Source: Saprospira sp. CCB-QB6
GTDB taxonomy: Bacteria > Bacteroidota > Bacteroidia > Chitinophagales > Saprospiraceae
Length of the DNA: 64,000 bases
Reading direction: 5' to 3'
NCBI RefSeq assembly: GCF_028464065.1
Contig: NZ_CP116808.1
Span: forward strand, 1,199,886-1,263,885
Shown here: positions 4,959-16,726 of the stretch, in pieces
Position numbering within the stretch: the stretch's first letter is position 1
How the letters are laid out: each line of letters starts with the position of its first letter
Position numbers and translations under genes: made by a program
The notes under the pieces: generated by a model
Databases searched by the model: none
What the model saw: the letters and a program-made list of their open reading frames with translations, nothing else
Told to the model about the DNA's origin: nothing

Positions 4959-6581
4959 TTAGTCGGCTTCTAGCTCTAGCGGTTGTATCTGCTTGAGCTC
5001 TGCCAAGCTCTCCCCTTCCCTATCGAGGCCAAACCATTCCCAACGAATTTCTTTGAATTTGGCATAGGCCTTAAAATCCTCAAAAATATCAAGAATATCG
5101 GGATCAATATGAGCGGTTCGGCTAGCGTCAATAAGCAAATGACTTTGAGCAGGAACCTTTGATAGGTATTCCTTTAATGCACTTTTATTCAAAAAAGAAA
5201 GATCTTCTGATAGCTGAAGATGAATCCTATCGCCCTCCTTAATTTCCGTAAAAGGCAAACGATAATTATTGCGTAAAATATAGAAAATAGCCACAGCCAT
5301 CCCGATCGTAATCCCGACTAACAAATCGCTAAGCAAAATGGCGACAATCGTAACCACAAAAGGAATAAATTGCTTATACCCCTGCCTCCACATCTGTTTA
5401 AAGACGGTTGGATTAGCCAATTTGTAGCCCACCATAACCAAAATGGCCGCTAAACTGGCCAAGGGGATGAGGTTGAGCAAAAAAGGAATTGTCAAAACGG
5501 CCAAAAGCAAAAAGACCCCATGCAAAAAAGCCGCTGTCTTAGAACGTCCCCCTGACTGAATATTGGCCGAAGAGCGCACAATCACCTGAGTAACAGGCAA
5601 ACCACCCAACAAACCCGCTGCAATATTTCCCATTCCCTGGGCCTTGAGCTCTTGGTTGAGGTTGGTGGTCCGTTTATGCGGATCCAATTTATCGGTAGCT
5701 TCTGCACAAAGCAGAGACTCCATACTCCCCACAATCGCCAACGTTATGGCCGTACTATAAACGGCTGGATTAAAGAGCTCTGCAAAGTTTGGAAACTTCA
5801 TTTCATTAGAAAAGGCTGCCCAAGAATCAAAAATAGGCAAACTCACCAAATGCTCTGGGGCAATTTCCAGTTGTGGAATCCCCTTAAAGCCCAAATTCAG
5901 CAAAATGCCAGAAATAACCGCCACCAAAGGCCCCTGAATCCACAAGGCCCAAGGCTGCTTTTTAATCAGGTCCTGCTGCCAAATAATAAGAATGGTAAAA
6001 GCCACCAAAGCCGCTACCGCTGGCCCCCAATTGACATTCAAGCCCTCAAAAACATCTGTAAATGCCTTAAAAATTTCACTAAAAGTCGTCTCCCCATCTG
6101 GCTGCTGATAGGCCATCTCCCCCTCTGGGTCCTTGTCATCGCCCAAAGCATGCGGAATCTGCTTGAGGATGATAATCAAACCAATGCCCGACAACATCCC
6201 CTTAATGACCGAAGATGGAAAAAAATACCCAATGCTTCCCGCCTTCAAAAAACCGAGCAAAAGCTGAAAGATACCCGAAATCACTACCGCCAACAAAAAG
6301 GTTTCAAAACTACCCAATTGCTCAATAGCCGCAATGACAATGGCCACCAATCCAGCCGCTGGACCACTGACCCCCAAAGAGGAATTTGAAAAAAGCGTGA
6401 CCACCGTGCCCCCCACTATGCCCGCAATAATGCCCGACAAAAGAGAGGTGCCCGAAGCTAAAGCAATACCCAAACAAAGCGGTACCGCAACCAAAAAAAC
6501 GACGATAGCCGCAGGCAAATCGTTGCTTAAATACTTAAATGACAGAGGAGACTTCATAGCTATAATTGTATGTTTAGACAA
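4959..6581 (-). CDS. SulP-family anion (sulfate/bicarbonate) permease with C-terminal STAS domain
   Basis: 540 aa, multiple TM helices, C-terminal STAS-like region (LIDASRTAHIDPD...). Confidence 0.9.
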   Translation of the reverse strand: MSKHTIIAMKSPLSFKYLSNDLPAAIVVFLVAVPLCLGIALASGTSLLSGIIAGIVGGTVVTLFSNSSLGVSGPAAGLVAIVIAAIEQLGSFETFLLAVVISGIFQLLLGFLKAGSIGYFFPSSVIKGMLSGIGLIIILKQIPHALGDDKDPEGEMAYQQPDGETTFSEIFKAFTDVFEGLNVNWGPAVAALVAFTILIIWQQDLIKKQPWALWIQGPLVAVISGILLNLGFKGIPQLEIAPEHLVSLPIFDSWAAFSNEMKFPNFAELFNPAVYSTAITLAIVGSMESLLCAEATDKLDPHKRTTNLNQELKAQGMGNIAAGLLGGLPVTQVIVRSSANIQSGGRSKTAAFLHGVFLLLAVLTIPFLLNLIPLASLAAILVMVGYKLANPTVFKQMWRQGYKQFIPFVVTIVAILLSDLLVGITIGMAVAIFYILRNNYRLPFTEIKEGDRIHLQLSEDLSFLNKSALKEYLSKVPAQSHLLIDASRTAHIDPDILDIFEDFKAYAKFKEIRWEWFGLDREGESLAELKQIQPLELEAD

Positions 6582-6663
6582 TTAGATGATAGTAAAGCTA
6601 TCAAGTACAAAGGTAATTAACTTATTCTAGTTAGTTTCACTTTATTTTATCTTTTTCTCTTCT

Positions 6664-6895
6664 TTTTTGGGGCTGCCCCTCCCGCCGAGTTGAAACCGAT
6701 CGCAAAGCGGTATCGCTTTGCGAAGCGATACAAAATGAGGGTGGAAACCCTCATGAGTTATTGGTCGGGTCGGGCTGTGTCAGGGCTCGCTGCTCGCTCG
6801 GCCCTGCGCAAAAAATGCTTTGCATTTTTGCTGGGTCTGGCCCTTTGGGCCACCCTTTTCCATCCCTCAGCCGTTTGGCCTTCGGCCATTTTGAG
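6664..6895 (+). repeat. GC-rich interspersed element, variant A, with an extra hairpin insert
   Basis: TTTTGGGGCTGCCCC...GGGTCGGGCTGTG...CTCGCTCGGCCC...GGTCTGGCC..GGGCCACCC. The ORF at 6690-6932 is an artefact. Confidence 0.85.
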
Positions 6896-7084
6896 ACTGT
6901 TTGAAATTTTTTGTGCCCTTTTCTGTGCCTAGGGACAAGCCCCTAGGCGATTATTGGCTGAATCCTGCTTTTTACATAGCCAGTTATGTTTTTTACATAG
7001 CTAGTTAGCTCCCAGACATAACTTTTGCCCTTTTTGATTTTGTTACATTATTTCCATTTTTAACAGATCGATAATATATAGACA

Positions 7085-7122
7085 TAAAAAAAGGCCCAAA
7101 ACCTAGGTTTTGGGCCTTTTGC
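7085..7122 (-). terminator. Rho-independent terminator
   Basis: Perfect 24-bp palindrome ggcccaaaacctaggttttgggcc flanked by an A-run and a T-run, 3' of the 7133-7606 gene. Confidence 0.6.
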
Positions 7123-7132
7123 GGGGCATATT

Positions 7133-7606
7133 TTATTTGAGGTTAAAGCTGCCCATAAAATCTTGGATTTCTTCAGCTTTAACGGCTTGAGGTTGGCGGT
7201 TAACGATAAGGAGCTGATAGACCTTATTTTCTTTGCGGTAGAGGTCATAGACAGCGGCGGCATCGAAGCCCATAAGGGTATATCGTTTAGAATTTTTGCC
7301 CCAGGGGCCTTCTTCTCTTTGGACACTCATGGGTTGGAGGCGCATAGCGGCGCCCAGCAAGAGAATTTCGAAAAGGCTATCGGGGGCTAGGGCGAGTTGA
7401 GTTTCGCCTAACTTCATGCAGGCGGCTTGATACTCCCAGATAGAGTCTGGACTTTTGTAGAAATAGGCTTCTACTCCATTTTGTTCTAGGCTATCGAAGG
7501 GGGCGGGAAATTGGAGGCTATACTGGCCAAATTCGGAATGGGCCATTGTTTTTTGTTGGCAGGCGTAGAGGCTAAGGAGCAGGCAGAGGAGGCTAAGAAT
7601 TCGCAT
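7133..7606 (-). CDS. Small lipoprotein, hypothetical
   Basis: Start trimmed to MRILSLLCLLLSLYAC (lipobox). The longer ORF-track N-terminus lies inside the GC-rich repeat. Confidence 0.6.
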   Translation of the reverse strand: MRILSLLCLLLSLYACQQKTMAHSEFGQYSLQFPAPFDSLEQNGVEAYFYKSPDSIWEYQAACMKLGETQLALAPDSLFEILLLGAAMRLQPMSVQREEGPWGKNSKRYTLMGFDAAAVYDLYRKENKVYQLLIVNRQPQAVKAEEIQDFMGSFNLK

Positions 7607-7640
7607 AATTGATTTTGGGCCAAAAATAAGCTTTTTTTGG

Positions 7641-7812
7641 GAGGATTGGAGGCGGCGCAGCCGCCTTGGCCGCAGGCCAGTTGGCCCAGCGCTGCGGAGG
7701 GGTGGCCCGAAGGGCCAGACCAAAGCCGCCGCAGGCGGCTGCAGGGCCGAACAGCCCTGTGAGCCCCGCAGCATAGCGGCGGCCGCCCCTCATAAAAGGG
7801 CGGCCGCGGGCT
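7641..7812 (-). repeat. GC-rich interspersed element, variant B reverse, plus a GCGGCCGC hairpin module
   Basis: ccacc..gggtggcccgaagggccagacc..., then gcggcggccgcccc..ggggcggccgcgggc. ORF 7593-7793 is an artefact. Confidence 0.8.
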
Positions 7813-7813
7813 C

Positions 7814-8686
7814 CTAAAAAATACTTTGATTAGTTAGGCGGAGAGCAGCACGGAGGGCATTGAGCATATTTCCGTGAGTTTGAATTTCTTGGATATCGAG
7901 ACCAATATCGACAATAGTTTGGGCTACATTTCCGGAAATGCCAGAGAGCATAGCTTGGCAGCCCATGAGTTTGGCGGCTTTGCTCATTTTGATCAGGGCA
8001 TTGGCCACCTCGCTATCCATCACGGCGATGCCTCGGATATCGAGAATAAAGACCTTAGCATTTTTCTCGGCGATAGCTTCCAGCATAGCGTTAAGGACTT
8101 GTCGGGCTCGTTCGCTATCGAGGAAACCGACCAGAGGCAGGAGCAGGATACCTTCCCAGAGGGGGGTAATGGGGGTAGACATAGCCGAGAGGGTTTCCTC
8201 TTTTTCTTGGAGGAGTTCTTCTTGGGCTTTACTGTAGCCATCGGTCAGGGTGGAGATAGCGATTCCGGTCAGTTTTCGATAAGTTTTGAGCAGACTAAGC
8301 GTAAGCAGGCCTTCTCTTTCGAATAGGTCTTGGACCTCTTGGTGGTAATAATTTTGGAAAGCTAAATAGGCATCGAAGGGGATGCCTACACTGGCGAAGA
8401 CTTGGCCAAAAAACCGTTGGCGTTCGATATATTCGTCATCGGCTTGGCCAGCGAGCAGATCGTCCCAGAAAATATCTTCGCTATCTCGGATGGCTTGCAG
8501 GACATCCTCTGTATAATACTGTTGGAAGAAGGGGTGATTTTCTAGCCAGCTGTAGAAGCGCGAGTAGAGTTCATCTTTTTGATCATAAATTTTTTGGCCG
8601 GCTTGGGCAAGTTCTGCTAGGTCTTCATCGGTGAGAAAAAAGAGGGCTTGGTAATAGGGCCAATTTTTAGTGTTAGGATCAATCAT
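7814..8686 (-). CDS. RsbR-like protein with N-terminal globin-like sensor and C-terminal STAS domain
   Basis: C-terminal LLPLVGFLDSERARQVLNAMLEAI...FILDIRGIAVMDSEVANALIKM is a STAS/anti-sigma-antagonist fold. No RsbS or RsbT gene is adjacent. Confidence 0.75.
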   Translation of the reverse strand: MIDPNTKNWPYYQALFFLTDEDLAELAQAGQKIYDQKDELYSRFYSWLENHPFFQQYYTEDVLQAIRDSEDIFWDDLLAGQADDEYIERQRFFGQVFASVGIPFDAYLAFQNYYHQEVQDLFEREGLLTLSLLKTYRKLTGIAISTLTDGYSKAQEELLQEKEETLSAMSTPITPLWEGILLLPLVGFLDSERARQVLNAMLEAIAEKNAKVFILDIRGIAVMDSEVANALIKMSKAAKLMGCQAMLSGISGNVAQTIVDIGLDIQEIQTHGNMLNALRAALRLTNQSIF

Positions 8687-8692
8687 CTGTAC

Positions 8693-9712
8693 TTAATAGT
8701 TTTGGATATGCAGGAGGACGAGGGTTTGGTTGAGTAGCATGTAGCCCACTTCGCCAAAGGTAAAGGGGCCTTCATAATCGCCTACTTTCTGGCCATCTAG
8801 CTTAAAGTTTAGGTAATTTACGATACAGTTACAGGCAGTAACGGCATTAGTAATAGGCATTTCGTTAAGAAAGGCTTCTGGGCTATAATCAACTTTTTTG
8901 GCTAGATAATACAGTTGATCGGCCGAAACGGGGGCATAAAAATAGACAGCCTCCTCCTCTATGCGTTGGATAGTGGTATTGATTAGTGCGCCAGAGTAAT
9001 CGGCGATTAGGGGAAGGCTACCATCTATGCCATTGGCTTTGCAGTAGCTAGGAAAATCTTGTTTTTCGCCATTGATCAGGGCTTCGGAGGCGGAAAAGTC
9101 AGTTTTTAGAAACTGGATTTTATCGCCTTGGCCTTCTTCGTAGGGGTTATAAATTTCGATTTCGGCATATTGGGTATCGGCCAGTTCGACATGCATTAAG
9201 ACTGCTTTATTCGTTAACTTTTGGGCTGTTGGGCCATAATAAGTTGCTGGCAAATGAGTTTCAGGAGCCTCTAGTTGTCGGCCTGTGATCCAGCCTAGAA
9301 TGGGTTGATCATAGAGTGTTTCATATTGGCCAATTTCTAGGGCATAAGCTTTATGGACTTCAGAGAAAGCGGGCAATGCGATATAGCTAAAGCCATTTTG
9401 GGGGCGGTCGGCTAGTAACTGTTCGAGTTCTTGGGCCGAATAGCTTTTAATTTGGGCAGAAACGGCTAGCTGTGTTAGTTTAGTAACAAATAGTCGATTC
9501 AGTTCTTTTTTGGCCCCTTCTTTACTCATAAAGTAGGGGGTACTCCCGCCCAGCCATTGGCCTGCGGGCAGTTGGTCGAGTAATTTTTGGCTAGCGGCGA
9601 TTAGCAGTAGTTCGCCAGCTTTAATTAGCGCTTGCGTCTCTTCTAGAGTAAGTAATTCGTTTTGAAGCTTAGCCATATCGTTAGAAATTATAGGGTTATA
9701 AAATGAACTCAC
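8693..9712 (-). CDS. Hypothetical protein, tandem paralog 1 (possibly a FIST-like sensory domain)
   Basis: 339 aa, about 80% identical to the 9787-10770 product (LLIAxxQxLLDQLPAGQWLGGxxPYFMS). It ends 6 bp from the RsbR-like gene. Confidence 0.8.
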   Translation of the reverse strand: MSSFYNPIISNDMAKLQNELLTLEETQALIKAGELLLIAASQKLLDQLPAGQWLGGSTPYFMSKEGAKKELNRLFVTKLTQLAVSAQIKSYSAQELEQLLADRPQNGFSYIALPAFSEVHKAYALEIGQYETLYDQPILGWITGRQLEAPETHLPATYYGPTAQKLTNKAVLMHVELADTQYAEIEIYNPYEEGQGDKIQFLKTDFSASEALINGEKQDFPSYCKANGIDGSLPLIADYSGALINTTIQRIEEEAVYFYAPVSADQLYYLAKKVDYSPEAFLNEMPITNAVTACNCIVNYLNFKLDGQKVGDYEGPFTFGEVGYMLLNQTLVLLHIQNY

Positions 9713-9786
9713 AAAAAAGGAGGTCTAAAATGAGTTTTACAAAACGCTAAAATTCTTCAAAATCAGGAGGTTAGTTTAAAACTCAT

Positions 9787-10770
9787 TTACTTATTCTGAA
9801 TGTGCAAGAGGACGAGGGTTTGGTTGAGTAAAATATAAGCAATTTCTCCGAAGGTAAAGGGGCCGCCGTAGTTTCCGATTTGTTCTCCTTCTAATTGAAA
9901 ATTAGAATAAATAGAAATACAGTTAAAGGCCGTAATTGCTTCTTCTTTGGGCATAGCCTTTAGAAAAGCTTGGGGGCTGTAGTGAATATCTTTGGCCCAA
10001 TGATAAACTTGGTCGCGAGATACTGGGCCATAGAAATGGACTCTATCTTCGTCAATGCGTTCAATATCAATATTAATTAGGGCACCAGAGTAATTGGCGA
10101 CAACGGGTAGTTGGCCTTTAATCTTCTTTGCTCGGCAGTAGTGGGCAAAGTTTTGTTTTTCGTTATTGATTAGGACCTCGCCGGCGGAGAAATCATCTTC
10201 TAGAAACTGGATGCTATCGCCATTGGCTTGTTCGTAGGGATTATAGATTTCGATTTCGGCATATTGGGTTTCGGGCAATTCGATATGCATGAGTACTGCC
10301 TTATTAGCGAGGCAAGTTGCTGTTGGTCCATGATAGACTGCGGGGAACTGGTCATCCTGTTCACTAGCGTCCAAATCTTTTCCAGTTATCCATCCGAGGA
10401 TAGGTGAATCGTAGAGGGTTTCGTATTGATTTATTTCTACGGCATAGGCTTTATGAACCTCAGAAAAAACGGGTAGTGCGATATAGCTAAAGCCATTTTT
10501 GGGGCGGTCGGCTAAGAGTTCTTCAAACTCTTGAGTGGAATAACTTTTAATGCTGGCAGAGGCTGCCACTTGAGTGAGGTTACTAACAAAAAGGCGGTTA
10601 AGATCTTTTTTGGCCCCTTCTCCACTCATAAAGTAGGGAATGGTTCCGCCCAACCATTGGCCTGCGGGTAATTGGTCCAATAAATCTTGGTTGCCAGCAA
10701 TTAAAAGTAAATCCCCTTGCTCAATCAGTGCAGTGGTTTCCCTTAAGGTTAGGATTTGGTTATTGGGCAT
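9787..10770 (-). CDS. Hypothetical protein, tandem paralog 2
   Basis: 327 aa, closely related to paralog 1. Confidence 0.8.
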   Translation of the reverse strand: MPNNQILTLRETTALIEQGDLLLIAGNQDLLDQLPAGQWLGGTIPYFMSGEGAKKDLNRLFVSNLTQVAASASIKSYSTQEFEELLADRPKNGFSYIALPVFSEVHKAYAVEINQYETLYDSPILGWITGKDLDASEQDDQFPAVYHGPTATCLANKAVLMHIELPETQYAEIEIYNPYEQANGDSIQFLEDDFSAGEVLINNEKQNFAHYCRAKKIKGQLPVVANYSGALINIDIERIDEDRVHFYGPVSRDQVYHWAKDIHYSPQAFLKAMPKEEAITAFNCISIYSNFQLEGEQIGNYGGPFTFGEIAYILLNQTLVLLHIQNK

Positions 10771-10808
10771 AAGCTATATGGTTAAGCAGTAAGTTATCGT
10801 ATGGCCAA

Positions 10809-11792
10809 CTATAGTTGTTTAATATCTAGGATGACCATTGTTTGGTTAAGGACCAGATAGGCAATTTCGCCAAAGGTGAAGGGGTAAGTATAGTCTTTTG
10901 TATAATTTTCGTTCTGGCTCAATTGTAAAAAATTGGCTACACAATTATAGGCAAGCAAAGTACTTTCTGTTTTTGGGGGTAATTTAGATCGGAAACTAGC
11001 TTGTCGGTCAGCTATATTTTTGGCAAAGCGGTAAGTTTGGCTTTGGAAGACAGGAGAAGCAAAGTTTACAGCTTGGGCTCCTTCTTCGGCCTGATAAATA
11101 GAGGTATTGAGTTCGGCTCCAGCAAAATCGCCGACTAATGGGTAGTCTAGGTCTATCTGATGGGTTTGGAGATAGCTTAAAAAGTTTTGTCTCTCGCCAT
11201 CAATTAAACAATATTCAGCCTGATAACCATCTTGAAGAAACTGGATATCGGGGCCTTCATTTTGTTCATAGATATTGACAATAGACAGCTCGGCATACTT
11301 CTCGGCTGGCAAATGAGCATGTAAGGCAACCAACTGATCCAAATAAACAGTTCCATCTTGACCATTGACGACTATAGGAGCAGTGGCTTCTCCCCAAGCA
11401 ACTCCTGTTACCCAGCCTAAGGTAGGCACATCAAAAAGAGAAATATTTTGGCTAATCTCTAAGGCATAAGTTGCTTGCACATCCTGAAAAGCAGGCATGA
11501 GCAGATAGCAAAACCCATTTACTGGCCGATCGGCTAACATTTGTTCTAAGTCTTCGGCTCGATAAGCTTTAATACTAAAGTTTTCTATTTCTGTTGTTAG
11601 ATCTGTCACAAAAACCTGATCTCGGAGGAGAGCACCACCTTCTTCACTCATAAAGTAAGGGATGCTTCCTCCAATCCAGTTTCCCTTAGGCAACTGTTGT
11701 AAAAGAGCGGCATCTGCAGCGACAATTAAAGTTCGGCCCTCGCTAATCCATTGGGCACAACGTTCGGGGGAAATCAGTTGGTTTTTTTTCAT
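10809..11792 (-). CDS. Hypothetical protein, tandem paralog 3 (diverged)
   Basis: 327 aa, same length and motif positions as paralogs 1 and 2 (GxWIGGSIPYFMSEEGG...FTFGEIAY). Confidence 0.8.
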   Translation of the reverse strand: MKKNQLISPERCAQWISEGRTLIVAADAALLQQLPKGNWIGGSIPYFMSEEGGALLRDQVFVTDLTTEIENFSIKAYRAEDLEQMLADRPVNGFCYLLMPAFQDVQATYALEISQNISLFDVPTLGWVTGVAWGEATAPIVVNGQDGTVYLDQLVALHAHLPAEKYAELSIVNIYEQNEGPDIQFLQDGYQAEYCLIDGERQNFLSYLQTHQIDLDYPLVGDFAGAELNTSIYQAEEGAQAVNFASPVFQSQTYRFAKNIADRQASFRSKLPPKTESTLLAYNCVANFLQLSQNENYTKDYTYPFTFGEIAYLVLNQTMVILDIKQL

Positions 11793-11807
11793 GGGGAAGA
11801 ATGGGAA

Positions 11808-12029
11808 TTAGTGTTTAAAAATGGCTTTAAGATCGGCGGCATACATCTTTTCATTTTTGGCACAATAGGCCCAAAGCTGCTGCCTAGCGTCTTTTAAGCT
11901 TAAATTTCCTTTACGGATCTGTACCTTCAGGCTATTCAGTTTTAACTGAAGCGAGAGGCTTTTTAACTTGGGCTTGATTCGCTCTTCTAAGAGGGCAGCC
12001 CATTCTTCTTCTTGAGGATCTGCTAGCAT
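11808..12029 (-). CDS. Small hypothetical protein (73 aa)
   Basis: Co-oriented ORF 15 bp upstream of the paralog array. No similarity recognised. Confidence 0.35.
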   Translation of the reverse strand: MLADPQEEEWAALLEERIKPKLKSLSLQLKLNSLKVQIRKGNLSLKDARQQLWAYCAKNEKMYAADLKAIFKH

Positions 12030-12067
12030 GTTGTTAGTGATTTAGTGGTTTCTCCCTACAATTTAAT

Positions 12068-12098
12068 AAAAAAAGGCTTCAGATGGAAGCCTTTTTTT
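12068..12098 (-). terminator. Rho-independent terminator
   Basis: Hairpin ggcttc-agatg-gaagcc between an A-run and a T-run, 3' of the MORN lipoprotein gene. Confidence 0.55.
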
Positions 12099-12102
12099 AT
12101 TC

Positions 12103-12816
12103 TTATTTTAACGGTTCGCATTGCGGCCGCATTTTTTCAATTGTGCTTTTAGCAAAATCATTAACTCCTTCTACAGGGCCCTCCTTGGCTTTCCAAAAGG
12201 TTGCACAAGTCTTTAATTGACTGTCACAAAGCATTTTAGATTCTAAACTTCCTGTACTATCTTGATCGTAAATCCAGAGCTCACAATGCTCAATATTATC
12301 CACATACAAGCCTTTTGCTTTGAGTTGACCATTTTGATAAAACTCTTCAAAAGGACCATTGGCCATATTTTCCACCATAAAGACCCGCTCTTTGAGGCGG
12401 CCATTGGGGTAATAGGTTTTTAAGCTGTCTGCTAAAGCATCTGCCTGATAGTGTCCTTCCTGTTTAAGCTTACCATCAGGAAAATAGTACTTTACGGGGC
12501 CTTCTAATTGCCCTTTTTCATTGTATTGAAAGCTAGCAGCTAGTTGTCCGTTGGGGTAATATTGTTTCTCCTCTCCGCGACTCAAGCCATCTTTGATTGT
12601 TTTTTCTAGGAACAAAATTTTTTTCCCATCCACTAAATTATACTCCTTGTAATAACCATCTTTTTTTTGCTTGAGTGTATCAAATTCGTACTCAATCCAT
12701 AAATTTTCTTGCTGCTCCGTTTTTAGCACCTTCGTGCTTTTGCTTTTTTCTACCTCTGCGGTCTGACAGGCCAACATCAATAGCAATAGCCCTCCGAATA
12801 TTAATTTTTTCATCAT
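12103..12816 (-). CDS. Lipoprotein with MORN-variant repeats (YwqK-like)
   Basis: Signal peptide with lipobox LLMLAC and repeated YYPNGQLK / YYFPDGKLK / FYQNGQLK units. Confidence 0.75.
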   Translation of the reverse strand: MMKKLIFGGLLLLMLACQTAEVEKSKSTKVLKTEQQENLWIEYEFDTLKQKKDGYYKEYNLVDGKKILFLEKTIKDGLSRGEEKQYYPNGQLAASFQYNEKGQLEGPVKYYFPDGKLKQEGHYQADALADSLKTYYPNGRLKERVFMVENMANGPFEEFYQNGQLKAKGLYVDNIEHCELWIYDQDSTGSLESKMLCDSQLKTCATFWKAKEGPVEGVNDFAKSTIEKMRPQCEPLK

Positions 12817-12839
12817 TATTATAGTGTTTAGTTTTTATT

Positions 12840-12967
12840 TTTTTTGGGCCTCCGCCTCGCTGCGCTCGTCGGCGCTACGTTGCGGGGCTCGCAGGTCTGC
12901 TCGGCCCTTCGGCGGCTTTGCCGCCTCGGTCTAGCCTGCGGCCACCCCTCCACATCGCTAGGCCAAG
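12840..12967 (+). repeat. GC-rich interspersed element, variant B
   Basis: TTTTTGGGCCTCCGC...GGGGCTCGCAGG...CACATCGCTAGGCC. Confidence 0.85.
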
Positions 12968-13172
12968 TGCTCAATCATGAATTCAGCTGCTTAGCAAGAT
13001 AAAAATTTACCTTTTGCAAATCCCTCCTCTTTATATAGAAAAGTACAATCCCTTAAAAAGTTACGTTCTTTAAAAATCGGGGGCTTTACAAAATAGTTGT
13101 ATCTTTATATAGGCCCCGTTAAATCGACTCATTCAATTCCGCAAATCCATTTCTCCCCAACCTCAAGTTACT

Positions 13173-13688
13173 ATGAAATTTCACTTACTTCTTATTGCTT
13201 TATTTGCTTTCAGTCTCTTTTCTTGTCAATCTGGACAGCCTGGACAAATTTCCATAGAGGTGGCCCAAAAAGGGCCTTTTCCCGAAAAAGAGTTTGCAAA
13301 AATTGTCGCCTATGACTATGAGAGTATGCAAGGCGATTATATACTCAATCGAAAAGGAGAATTACATCCTTCAGTAAAGGCTCAAAAAGTGCTAAGCAAA
13401 GAGCAGGCAGCACTCTTAGTAGAGACTTTGAATAGTGAGAGTACTTATGGCGGTTCGGTAACCCGTTGTTTTTATCCTCGTTTGGGTTTTGTTTTTTATA
13501 ATGGCAGTGATGAGCCAGTAGGGCAAGTGAGTGTATGTTTTCAGTGTAACCAGCAAGTAGCTGGCCCTGAGATTCCTGTACAAGAAGCGCTGCTTACGGC
13601 TGGTAAACCAGCGGGTTATAGTTCTTTAGGACGGGAAAAGCTCAGTGCGCTTTGTCAAAGTTTAGGCTTTAGTAATTGTGCTGAATAA
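13173..13688 (+). CDS. Lipoprotein, hypothetical
   Basis: MKFHLLLIALFAFSLFSC lipobox, 171 aa, followed by a strong terminator. Confidence 0.65.
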   Translation: MKFHLLLIALFAFSLFSCQSGQPGQISIEVAQKGPFPEKEFAKIVAYDYESMQGDYILNRKGELHPSVKAQKVLSKEQAALLVETLNSESTYGGSVTRCFYPRLGFVFYNGSDEPVGQVSVCFQCNQQVAGPEIPVQEALLTAGKPAGYSSLGREKLSALCQSLGFSNCAE

Positions 13689-13703
13689 GTGATTATGTTA
13701 TAT

Positions 13704-13748
13704 AAAAATGGCCGTTTTCCCAAGCTGGAAAACGGCCATTTTATTTTG
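13704..13748 (+). terminator. Rho-independent terminator
   Basis: Perfect 16-bp stem aaaatggccgttttcc/ggaaaacggccatttt followed by a T-run. Confidence 0.65.
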
Positions 13749-13754
13749 CGTACT

Positions 13755-13850
13755 ACAGGGTCGCCGAAGGCGAAAGACCTAACGGGCGCAGCCTGCACAG
13801 GGCCAATCGAGCAGCAAGCTGCGACAACCCGCCCCAAAAAAGAGGCTATC
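13755..13850 (-). repeat. GC-rich interspersed element, degenerate or truncated copy
   Basis: gtcgccgaaggcgaaagacc..gggcgcagcc..gagcagcaagctgcgac..gccccaaaaaa resembles the reverse-orientation arm. Confidence 0.6.
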
Positions 13851-13855
13851 CCATT

Positions 13856-15304
13856 TTAATTTTCGGGGGTTAGCAAACCTTCTGTATTGGTTTTAATTAG
13901 TGTAACCATGGGGTTTGTGGCCAAGTTCATGGTCCCGGTCATGAGGTACCCCTTAAGTTCTCGGCGGGTAGTTCCAGGAACTAGCTCGCGGATGGGCATA
14001 ACTGTTCCTGCTTGGTTTCCAGCCAATGCTTGGCTACTATTATTTACAGAAGCGCGTCCAAATTCTCGAATTTGACCATCCCATTCAGGGGTTAAATCTG
14101 CGCTAATTTTGGCCATCACTAATTCATCTCCGAAATTGGCTTCATCATATTCTTTAACTGCGCTAATCACAAAGCTGGGGTCATTTCCCACAACATCTGA
14201 GGGGACCAATGCGATACTACCAGAGAGGAGGTCTTCTGTGGCATTGCTAAATCCTCCATTTGTTTTGCCTAGGTAGCGCCGCTGAATTTCTCCGAGGTCT
14301 TCACCGATTTGCAAGAGCATAAGGTCGCCTTCATTAACCTCATTTCGTGTGGGGTCACGATTTTCGACATGGCCTAAGATAGTAATTCGAGCATTGAGAG
14401 AATCGTAGCAAGATCCACCGGCTACAACAAACATATCTTGTCCGCCAAAGCCTTCTTGGCTAACTTCACCTCCAGAAGAGGCGCGAAATCGGATGGTAAG
14501 AATTTCAGTAGTAAAATTGGGATTGGCAGGAGTACTGTTCTCTTCATCTAGAGATTGAGAAGTTCCGATAACGATATAGGCGCCATTAATGACTTCTACA
14601 GAGACAGCACGATCTTCACCGACAAATCCTCTTTTTACTCTCCAGAGTACCTGGCCTTCAGTACTGAGTCGTACAGTAAGCATATCGGTTTTATCATACT
14701 CTGCATATTCTATGTATTCTGCTTTTACATTTAAATCTGTAGTTTCTCCAACTAGAACAAAGCCGCCATAGGGTAATTCTTTAATATCGTAAACAAAATC
14801 TTTATAGGTTTCTGAAGAAGCAAGCGTATTGCCATCAAAGAGCACTTTTTCCCAAACTATATTTCCATCTAGGTCTAGCTTATACAAAACGATATAAGTT
14901 GCATCTAGTGTAGATTGGCCACCGACTGTAACGACAGTTGTTCTGTTTCCGGCTACGAGGTAGCCAGATTCGTCAGAGAGGACCAGAACGCGATGTCCTG
15001 TTTCTTCGTAGCCATTTCCTCCATCACCAAAAGTTTTGCTCCATTCTTCATTCCCTAAAGAATCAGTTTTGATTAGGTAAAAGTCATTATAGCTAGAAGC
15101 ATTAACGAAAGAATTGGAAGAGCCTGCAATTATAAATCCTTTATCAGCTGTTTGTTTAACATCCTTTCCAATTTGGTCATTGACGTATCCGTAATATTTG
15201 ACAAAGGCATCTCCTTGGTTGGCTGGAGAGATATTCTCCTTTTTGCAGGAGGCTAGGCCAAGCAAGAGTAGGGCTGAGGCTGCCAGTAAATAGTGTTTTA
15301 ACAT
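13856..15304 (-). CDS. Lipoprotein, hypothetical (482 aa)
   Basis: MLKHYLLAASALLLLGLASC lipobox, long ORF with coding-like composition. Confidence 0.75.
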   Translation of the reverse strand: MLKHYLLAASALLLLGLASCKKENISPANQGDAFVKYYGYVNDQIGKDVKQTADKGFIIAGSSNSFVNASSYNDFYLIKTDSLGNEEWSKTFGDGGNGYEETGHRVLVLSDESGYLVAGNRTTVVTVGGQSTLDATYIVLYKLDLDGNIVWEKVLFDGNTLASSETYKDFVYDIKELPYGGFVLVGETTDLNVKAEYIEYAEYDKTDMLTVRLSTEGQVLWRVKRGFVGEDRAVSVEVINGAYIVIGTSQSLDEENSTPANPNFTTEILTIRFRASSGGEVSQEGFGGQDMFVVAGGSCYDSLNARITILGHVENRDPTRNEVNEGDLMLLQIGEDLGEIQRRYLGKTNGGFSNATEDLLSGSIALVPSDVVGNDPSFVISAVKEYDEANFGDELVMAKISADLTPEWDGQIREFGRASVNNSSQALAGNQAGTVMPIRELVPGTTRRELKGYLMTGTMNLATNPMVTLIKTNTEGLLTPEN

Positions 15305-15325
15305 AGGTGTAAATTTTAGGTAGAT

Positions 15326-16726
15326 TTATTTCTTCTTAATCTCAGAGGCTTTGTCTTTGATTTCATCAATCACCTTTGAGCTAGCGCGGCCACGGCGCAC
15401 ATCTTCAATGATACCAGGTTGGTCTCTTTCGAGTTCACGGACAAAGCTATTGAGTTCTTGTTTTAGTTCAGAGTCTGTAGTCCGTTTAGCGTTCCGTTTT
15501 TCTTTACTAATAATCTTATTCAGGCGACGATTGATAAAGACTTCATTGTACTGTCTTTTTTTTCTGGGTTTATAGAAAGATTTTTCAAAGCCGATTGTGA
15601 GAGAATAATTATCCATGCGAAAATCATTATCTACATGTCCGTATTCATAGAGTAGTTCTGGATTGCTATAGCGATTTTCTCTATTGACGGAATTCATTAG
15701 AAAGCGGTTGTACCGGGCTTCAATAATAACAAAATCGTGGCCCACTCGAATTTTGGCTCCAGCTCCAGCCAAAAGAGAGATATTAAATGATTCCCGTAGC
15801 GACAAGCGATCATTATTGGTTTCGCCAGTTTGTACTTCACCCTTCAGGCCAGAACCAGCAATAACAAAGCTACGTTCGCCACCTACCACGGCTCCACCTC
15901 CGTCAGATTCTCGGGTAGTACTTCTTTGAATATTTACCATACTTGCTGAGAGCAAGAAATTGGGGGCGCCTCCGATATAGGCATAAGGAATTACCTTTTT
16001 ATAGCGCTTAAAATAGTGTTCGTATCGGAGCATTAGGGGAATATCAATCCAGTATTGGCGTTCATCGAACTGTAGGTTAGAGTACAGTTGCTCAAACTGA
16101 GTTGGTGTTTGGCTGCTTGGAGACAAAAACATGCTATCTATTCCTCTGTAGCTTCTAAGTGCAAAATTTCCTTCTAAGGCAAGGGTAAAATCTCGCCAGA
16201 TTGGCATTTCCACGCCAATAGCTCCTGAAACACCCAACATAAACGTATTGTAGTTTTCTGAACGGCGGTTATTATTATCTACATTATAAGTTTCTAAGAT
16301 TTGCAATCGGCTATTATTCGCTCCAATATTTGCATAGATAGAAATGAGGGGTTTATGTCTGTAGGTTCTAGACAAATAAATTAGGTCATAAGAATTATTG
16401 GGGTTTAAAGAGTCTGCCTCATAGAGAGGGTTAATTTTGAGGAGTTCTTCAAAAGATCGAGTAGCATCGTCGAGGTCATTGCGGAACAAGTAACTTTCGG
16501 TAAGTAGTTTATAGCCTTCTTCTCTTTTTGCTTTTACAGGAAAGGCTTTTTTATTTGCTAGGCAGTCGCGGATTAGGTCGCCTACCTCTTCCAGTTGGCC
16601 TTCTTCATAAGATCTTTTGGCCTCATCTAGGTTATCGTTACAGAGATCTTCATCTAGTGATTGTGCAGATAAGATTTGAGGGCTGAGGGCTAGGGCAACA
16701 GCGGCCCAAAGCAATTTTAGTTTCAT
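15326..16726 (-). CDS. Secreted protein with an N-terminal TPR-like region and a putative beta-barrel
   Basis: Start trimmed to MKLKLLWAAVALALS (signal peptide). Co-oriented with, and 22 bp from, the upstream lipoprotein gene. Confidence 0.7.
   Translation of the reverse strand: MKLKLLWAAVALALSPQILSAQSLDEDLCNDNLDEAKRSYEEGQLEEVGDLIRDCLANKKAFPVKAKREEGYKLLTESYLFRNDLDDATRSFEELLKINPLYEADSLNPNNSYDLIYLSRTYRHKPLISIYANIGANNSRLQILETYNVDNNNRRSENYNTFMLGVSGAIGVEMPIWRDFTLALEGNFALRSYRGIDSMFLSPSSQTPTQFEQLYSNLQFDERQYWIDIPLMLRYEHYFKRYKKVIPYAYIGGAPNFLLSASMVNIQRSTTRESDGGGAVVGGERSFVIAGSGLKGEVQTGETNNDRLSLRESFNISLLAGAGAKIRVGHDFVIIEARYNRFLMNSVNRENRYSNPELLYEYGHVDNDFRMDNYSLTIGFEKSFYKPRKKRQYNEVFINRRLNKIISKEKRNAKRTTDSELKQELNSFVRELERDQPGIIEDVRRGRASSKVIDEIKDKASEIKKK

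Follow-up and report, generated by a model that had tools for sequence, protein, structure and literature searches.

The stretch of DNA analysed here (the window) comprises 64,000 nucleotides of Saprospira sp. CCB-QB6 (contig NZ_CP116808.1, positions 1,199,886 to 1,263,885), and we describe an operon on its minus strand, running from 12029 to 7814, that consists of five consecutive same-strand open reading frames (ORFs). In the order of transcription these are a 73-amino acid (aa) ORF (11808-12029), three paralogous genes named A (10809-11792, 327 aa, the most diverged copy), B (9787-10770, 327 aa) and C, and a gene for an RsbR-type globin-STAS protein (7814-8686, 290 aa). All five ORFs listed in the original prediction, which had been made from the letters of the DNA, are present on the minus strand. 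For paralog C, the mechanical ORF covers 8693-9712 (339 aa, GTG start at 9712), and the more probable start codon is the ATG at 9676, because the ortholog in Saprospira grandis is 327 aa long; our preferred call on the minus strand is 8693-9676 (327 aa). None of the five proteins has a membrane segment. When compared with S. grandis DSM 2844, all five genes are under purifying selection (ratio of nonsynonymous to synonymous substitution rates, dN/dS, 0.07-0.12), and the 73-aa ORF, with a dN/dS of 0.09 and 93% identity to its S. grandis counterpart, is therefore a real gene. Between the two species, the dN of the paralogs is 2-4 times that of the small and STAS genes.

The gaps between the genes are, in order, 15, 38, 74-110 and 6 nt, and the STAS gene starts 6 nt past paralog C, just as had been predicted. 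The terminator scan found no terminator-like hairpin at any gene junction of the operon, which, together with the 6-nt junction, fits the proposed co-transcription of the STAS gene with the paralogs. The same scan found a bidirectional terminator-like hairpin (12065-12101, 16-pair stem, A and T runs on its flanks) between the operon and the upstream MORN-repeat gene, and this hairpin is the 5' boundary of the operon; the distance from the MORN stop to the start of the small ORF is 73 nt. At the other end, a GC-rich 13-bp stem-loop with NotI sites (7779-7807, minus strand) begins 7 nt past the STAS stop codon. The 56-nt segment that contains it folds with -31.4 kcal/mol (z = -2.5) and no T-run follows, and the stem-loop is likely the 3' end of the operon or a repetitive extragenic palindromic (REP)-like element. 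A sigma-70 promoter scan gave matches at chance level only, and the Bacteroidota -7 motif TAnnTTTG was found in none of the intergenic regions. In the intergenic region between B and C (9713-9786), two 9-nt arms, ATGAGTTTT ... AAAACTCAT, form a perfect inverted repeat around a loop of ~40 nt, and TTTTAG comes next. The repeat may act as an attenuator, mark a processing site or serve for regulation within the operon.

All three paralogs belong to the Pfam family DUF6976 (PF22396). They match its profile over the full length (positions 2-321 of 321) with 375-398 bits, where the gathering score is 27 bits, and with E-values of 1e-112 to 1e-119 (1.5e-114 for B and 3.6e-119 for C); no NCBIfam model was found for them. 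The three ~330-aa genes are thus paralogs with the first one diverged, as had been proposed: A shares 39-42% of its amino acids with B and C (39% with B) and 53% of its nucleotides. The identity of about 80% that had been given for B and C was overstated, the values being 68-69% at the protein level and 70.8% at the nucleotide level. The motif G-x-W-(L/I)-G-G...P-Y-F-M-S..E-G, already pointed out for the paralogs, is present in them. Among 65 DUF6976 members, G37, W39, G42 and P45-Y46-F47-M48 are invariant or nearly so, and each of the three paralogs keeps all family-invariant residues. An NCBI protein of strain CCB-QB6 matches paralog A with 100% identity. For every one of the three copies, S. 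grandis has a 1:1 ortholog (77-80% identical overall, 78-79% for B and 79-80% for C), and the triplication predates the split of the Saprospira species.

The family could be placed by its fold. Paralog A was modelled with AlphaFold2 from the 65-sequence alignment, and the model reached a predicted local distance difference test score (pLDDT) of 92.9 and a predicted template modelling score (pTM) of 0.91. When it was searched with Foldseek, only three entries were retrieved at E ≤ 1e-3, and all of them are FBXO22 (8ua3, 8ua6 and 8s7e). The modelled fold is the FBXO22-like three-repeat arrangement with pseudo-threefold symmetry, and the next neighbours are chorismatase and enzymes of the cyanuric-acid-hydrolase class. 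FIST_C (PF10442) was weakly matched by 20 of the 65 members (best E 0.0013, 18 bits at a cut-off of 28.5), and the match is colinear, with DUF6976 residues ~220-317 on FIST_C positions 17-130 of 131. FIST_N (PF08495) was never matched, the paralogs of the window gave no FIST_C match, and the DUF6976 profile gave only noise against PDB sequences. On the basis of the confident model, the FBXO22 matches and the colinear weak FIST_C match, we regard DUF6976 as a divergent FIST-fold family at the level of the predicted structure. The FIST-like assignment in the original prediction therefore stands for the fold and for the weak FIST_C signal in relatives, and fails at the Pfam thresholds for FIST, the family by name being DUF6976. 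In the literature, we found DUF6976 in no paper, and no paper naming both the stressosome and FIST.

The 73-aa ORF had been treated as incidental, and it proved to be the near-universal partner of DUF6976, a place that does not belong to the STAS gene. We surveyed 80 genome loci together with loci from an exact protein look-up, which gave 87 non-redundant DUF6976 loci. Of these, 82, spread over many phyla, have a homologous small ORF immediately before their first DUF6976 gene. The five exceptions are L021 and L040, whose contigs both end upstream of the gene, L083, and two Aureispira arrays, in which the small ORF is located between the DUF6976 copies. In the surveyed loci, tandem DUF6976 copies are confined to Saprospiraceae, with three in Saprospira and two or three in Aureispira, and the gene is single-copy elsewhere; the duplications of the two genera are independent. 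The 73-aa protein is made up of just one domain, of ~69 aa and four helices, in which one Trp (W10) is invariant, and the family alignment is nearly gapless. Its AlphaFold2 model is compact, with four helices and a pLDDT of 92.4, and showed no informative fold neighbour. Likewise, no Pfam or NCBIfam model matches the protein, and its profile gave only noise against PDB sequences. A word-indexed profile search returned only 15 matches owing to its prefilter, and an exhaustive profile search was used instead; this yielded 929 representative clusters at 50% identity, many of them with 2-6 tandem copies of the domain. One natural fusion of the small domain with DUF6976 was found (P0064, 420 aa). 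In the window, paralog A continues the reading frame of the 73-aa ORF, with one TAA and five codons between them (11793-11810).

In other lineages, the same domain, which we call the docking domain, is found in larger proteins. It stands after a conserved ~160-aa N-terminal extension in 24 loci and is repeated 4-5 times in 6 loci. The extension matches Zn_ribbon_ISL3 in 12 of 22 cases and HTH_Tnp_ISL3 in 7 of 22 (best E 3e-9), in the correct order; one more extended member lies above the HTH gathering threshold, and these two ISL3 modules are the only Pfam matches of the extensions. The extension is accordingly predicted to be a transposase-derived DNA-binding head, and it looks like the N-terminal Zn-ribbon/HTH module of an ISL3 transposase that was domesticated as the head of a non-transposase protein. 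This resemblance to ISL3-family transposases concerns the proteobacterial docking proteins only, and the 73-aa protein of the window is without such a module. In most extensions of L019-L087 the zinc-binding cysteines are lost, and CxxC is kept only in L020, L063, L078 and L080. A PDB match of the extension to 8vd6 ('CAP REPEAT', E 2e-17) was set aside as a relationship, as it sums five weak HTH-like matches to a designed repeat protein and indicates only the HTH character of the extension.

Other architectures and neighbourhoods of the pair involve known signalling components. Protein P0229 has the order HAMP-PAS-nucleotidyl cyclase-TPR-docking domain, and in one Gemmatimonadales locus (L040) the C-terminal TPR repeats are on DUF6976 itself. 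In Gammaproteobacteria with 4-5 docking repeats, the pair is directly upstream of genes for REC, CheY, CheW, a methyl-accepting chemotaxis protein and a hybrid CheA (Pil-Chp-like). At six loci (L046, L054, L078, L080, L085 and L087; ~6000-16700, for example in Methylohalomonas lacus), the docking protein joins an ISL3-like head to 4-5 docking repeats, and its gene is followed by DUF6976 and then by the Pil-Chp-like operon. A REC protein is encoded downstream of the pair in Methylibium, and a GAF histidine kinase nearby in Xanthomonas; Derxia and Endozoicomonas also have the pair. The docking-domain fusions and the chemosensory and kinase neighbours therefore point to signalling, and the small four-helix domain behaves as a docking module that takes the FIST-like subunit to various outputs.

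The last gene of the operon encodes a protein with an N-terminal sensor globin (Protoglobin, 4e-15) and an RsbR-type C-terminal STAS domain (4e-13). Residues 15-286 align to the stressosome RsbR of Vibrio vulnificus (VvRsbR, 7o0i_B) at E 1e-58, the alignment of the STAS domain with Listeria RsbR has an E-value of 1e-27, and the whole protein is 91% identical to that of S. grandis. Phe97 ("GQVFASVGIP") is aligned with the His of the VvRsbR motif "GEIHARVGLP", which we take to be the proximal (F8) haem ligand of globin-coupled sensors. The globin domain is therefore probably haem-less, with Phe97 in the place where a haem-based globin-coupled sensor would have its presumed proximal His, and the description of the protein as an RsbR-type non-haem globin with STAS is borne out by the VvRsbR alignment and by a Phe where VvRsbR and 26 homologs have His. 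Across the homologs, this column is Phe throughout the closest clade and His in more distant ones. The N-terminal globin of VvRsbR is reported to bind haem, without the ligand residue being named (PMC9237108). In the STAS domain, Ser191 and Ser225 occupy the phospho-acceptor positions and match S199/T233 of VvRsbR, T171/T205 of Bacillus subtilis RsbR and T175/T209 of the Listeria protein; the pair is S/T or S/S in 92 of 97 globin-STAS homologs.

The usual partners of such a protein were looked for in the whole 64-kb window. Searches at maximum sensitivity, with a STAS profile and with RsbS, RsbT and SpoIIE as queries, matched only the RsbR-like gene itself, so that no rsbR-rsbS-rsbT(-rsbX) module is found there, and RsbS and RsbT were also not found in the related metagenome contigs L088-L090. 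The predicted absence of RsbS and RsbT thus holds across the window; sigma-B, also named as absent, was not specifically searched for. The negative is meaningful, since the same RsbT query finds RsbT at most homologs that have the His. The neighbours were counted for those globin-STAS genes that have 1.5 kb or more of sequence on either side. RsbT was nearby in 24 of 26 and DUF6976 in 0 of 26 genes with His at the ligand position. For genes with Phe, RsbT was nearby in 0 of 7 and DUF6976 in 5 of 7, and the two remaining Phe genes are tandem globin-STAS copies in L100; the one gene with Leu had neither (0/1 for both). RsbS- and SpoIIE-like genes were found in most of the longer homolog contigs. 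Considering that the window has no RsbS, RsbT, SpoIIE or other STAS gene, the protein is a genuine RsbR relative without the presumed haem ligand and without the usual neighbours. In the metagenome contigs L096 (6396-9077) and L100, the Phe-type globin-STAS gene is present as three tandem paralogs, and RsbS, RsbT and DUF6976 are absent; this lineage multiplied the RsbR-like gene rather than the FIST-like gene. A strict coupling of the loss of the presumed ligand His to DUF6976 linkage was rejected on account of these arrays.

The order of small ORF, DUF6976 and globin-STAS is repeated in S. grandis, in the 97%-identical metagenome contig L099 and in L088-L090. In the latter three contigs, identity to the window genes is ~50% for the STAS protein and ~42% for DUF6976, DUF6976 is single and the flanking genes are unrelated. 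Neighbourhood conservation, by which the original prediction was to be checked, is accordingly found for the small ORF with DUF6976, and for STAS only in Saprospira and relatives: among the surveyed loci, STAS stands beside DUF6976 only in Saprospira and these three related contigs. For this reason, the link to the STAS scaffold is seen as an addition, particular to this lineage, to a two-gene module of older date, and we hold with moderate confidence that an RsbR without RsbS and RsbT was recruited onto that module in this lineage.

Taken together, we consider it somewhat better than an even bet that the operon is one cytoplasmic signalling module, made of an ancient docking/DUF6976 core that is coupled to an RsbR-like protein in Saprospira. 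The ancient core would be the two-gene pair of a ~70-aa four-helix docking domain and a FIST-fold DUF6976 protein that binds it. DUF6976 would be the input, as a sensor or regulatory subunit, and may bind a small ligand or cofactor like NosP or recognise a protein like the FIST domain of FBXO22, and the docking domain would tether it to an output. In other lineages, the output may be fused to the docking domain, as an ISL3-derived Zn-ribbon/HTH module or as HAMP-PAS-cyclase, and in some Gammaproteobacteria it may be reached through the protein with 4-5 docking domains that is encoded beside the Pil-Chp-like chemosensory operon. In the Saprospira lineage, the docking protein has no fused output, and the module is proposed to be coupled to the RsbR-like globin-STAS, with the complex acting on or through it. 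Because both phosphorylatable serines are kept, the RsbR-like protein probably still works by STAS oligomerisation or by phosphorylation-dependent partner switching with unlinked components. The three DUF6976 paralogs could then serve as alternative inputs for one docking protein and one STAS protein.

Several known systems resemble parts of this module. The FIST-domain sensors are the closest to DUF6976, above all NosP, a haem-binding NO sensor that shares an operon with a histidine kinase and a response regulator. NosP is a FIST protein that stands alone, and it binds the kinase encoded next to it and controls this kinase (PMC12570481). Similar to NosP, DUF6976 is a stand-alone, cytoplasmic, ~330-aa single-domain protein of the FIST three-repeat fold that is encoded beside a signalling partner, presumably regulated by it, and its C-terminal third is recognisable as FIST_C. 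In contrast to NosP, DUF6976 is a separate family under the Pfam FIST thresholds, occurs here as three tandem paralogs, and has as its partner a dedicated ~70-aa docking domain (plus the STAS protein here) and no histidine kinase. Pfam-checked neighbours within ~6 kb, namely the MORN gene and the downstream ORF in the window and the orthologous locus in S. grandis, include no histidine kinase or REC, and no HATPase-type (RsbT-like) kinase was found in the 64-kb window, in which no scan was aimed at HisKA or REC. The FIST domain of FBXO22 belongs to a eukaryotic E3-ligase substrate receptor without a docking-domain partner and is 9-12% identical to DUF6976 over the aligned region. On the STAS side, the haem-globin RsbR of Vibrio vulnificus and V. 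brasiliensis (7o0i) has the same two-domain architecture, STAS core and both phospho-acceptor positions, whereas the Saprospira protein has Phe97 for His, is preceded by DUF6976 genes, and has no rsbS, rsbT or rsbX within the 64 kb. The non-haem RsbR paralogs of B. subtilis (RsbRA-RD and YtvA) likewise provide multiple paralogous inputs to one STAS-based hub, and their likeness extends to a globin fold that is probably non-haem. However, the paralogy in Bacillus is within the RsbR proteins, while the Saprospira operon has a single RsbR-like gene, and its paralogs are those of a separate FIST-like protein.

Alternatively, the operon may unite two unrelated systems, a self-contained docking/DUF6976 pair and an RsbR-like protein that is an orphan stressosome remnant or is served by RsbS and RsbT elsewhere in the genome. 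We regard this as rather unlikely, although it accounts for the absence of a STAS neighbour at 84 of 87 DUF6976 loci, including Aureispira of the same family, for the Phe-type globin-STAS genes that occur without DUF6976 as tandem arrays of three (L096 and L100), and for the two phospho-acceptor serines, which are kept as if an unlinked RsbT-like kinase still acts. It is less compatible with the 6-nt junction in Saprospira, with the lack of RsbT near any Phe-type homolog when nearly all His-type homologs have it, and with the recurrence of the same three-gene order, at the above degrees of divergence and amid unrelated flanks, in about four independent lineages. These lineages are also the only ones on which the STAS-DUF6976 coupling rests, and this small number weighs against a single module, as do the DUF6976 loci without STAS and the Phe-type arrays. 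Other points weigh in the same direction. The 74-110-nt gap before paralog C could contain an internal promoter, the link to FIST is mainly by fold because FIST_N and FIST_C stay under the Pfam thresholds, and we infer both the physical contact of the docking protein with DUF6976 and, from our identification of the aligned His as the ligand, the abolition of haem binding by Phe97. Finally, the conservation of DUF6976 between phyla is unusually high (~38-40% identity), and its invariant N, C, E, Y and Q residues include N283, C284, E309, N316 and Q317; this would also suit an enzyme.

Such an enzyme would have the YjgF-derived three-repeat fold, like chorismatase and cyanuric acid hydrolase/barbiturase, with the small protein as an accessory and the paralogs acting on different substrates; we think this improbable. 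The layout of a small upstream ORF and a larger downstream effector also recalls a toxin-antitoxin, defence or mobile-element cassette, and the ISL3 transposase N-terminal modules in the proteobacterial partners could be taken in the same sense. This explanation is disfavoured, and we give it very little weight: PADLOC matches none of the five proteins, the Pfam matches of the extended partners are confined to the ISL3 Zn-ribbon and HTH modules, the loci are single-copy amid ordinary housekeeping neighbours, and in the comparison of the two Saprospira species the genes are under strong purifying selection and correspond to one another 1:1 as orthologs.

Some features around the operon were also recorded. 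Directly upstream, beyond the hairpin, is the gene for the MORN-repeat protein (12103-12816, minus strand), which has a lipoprotein-like N-terminus and keeps this position in S. grandis. About 1.2 kb downstream of the RsbR-like gene, a SulP-family transporter is encoded (4959-6581, minus strand), likewise in S. grandis (L007). By eye, its C-terminus is STAS-like, which is unconfirmed, and the RsbR-STAS profile gave no match to it; its position near the RsbR-like gene is probably a coincidence. A GC-rich dispersed repeat with the core GGCCCTTCGGGCCACC has 6 copies in the window (4036, 6839, 7701, 22051, 30313 and 47736), when 0.01 would be expected at ~43% GC. An inverted pair of this repeat (6834-6888 and 7667-7721) brackets the region just downstream of the STAS gene. 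The repeat looks REP-like or like a miniature inverted-repeat transposable element, and it probably inflates the N-terminus of the mechanical ORF 7133-7774. Also downstream of the operon, the intergenic positions 6966-7007 hold two tandem 21-nt units, TGCTTTTTACATAGCCAGTTA, that are 90% identical.

The protein pair described here is of considerable size for one without literature, with 815 DUF6976 clusters at 90% identity beside the 929 docking-domain clusters, and it spans Bacteroidota, Proteobacteria, Spirochaetota, Myxococcota, Bdellovibrionota, Acidobacteriota, Gemmatimonadota and others. We tentatively raise the wider possibility, in which our confidence is limited, that the docking domain and DUF6976 form an unrecognised phylum-spanning modular sensory system, in which a FIST-like sensor is plugged into interchangeable outputs. 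These outputs would be a domesticated ISL3 DNA-binding head, nucleotidyl cyclases, multi-docking scaffolds by Pil-Chp-type operons and, in Saprospiraceae, a haem-less RsbR without RsbS and RsbT; in Saprospira, this RsbR scaffold would be multiplexed by the three paralogs, which would replace the lost haem sensing of the globin. The FIST fold, together with a docking domain that is fused in DNA-binding, cyclase and scaffold architectures, provides testable hypotheses for a whole domain family of unknown function. In addition, the analysis defines a clade of RsbR-like proteins without the presumed haem ligand and without neighbouring RsbS and RsbT, which bears on what stressosome-type STAS proteins sense and on signalling outside the sigma-B paradigm. 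The triplication in Saprospira is a natural system for the study of how input specificity diversifies around a fixed hub.

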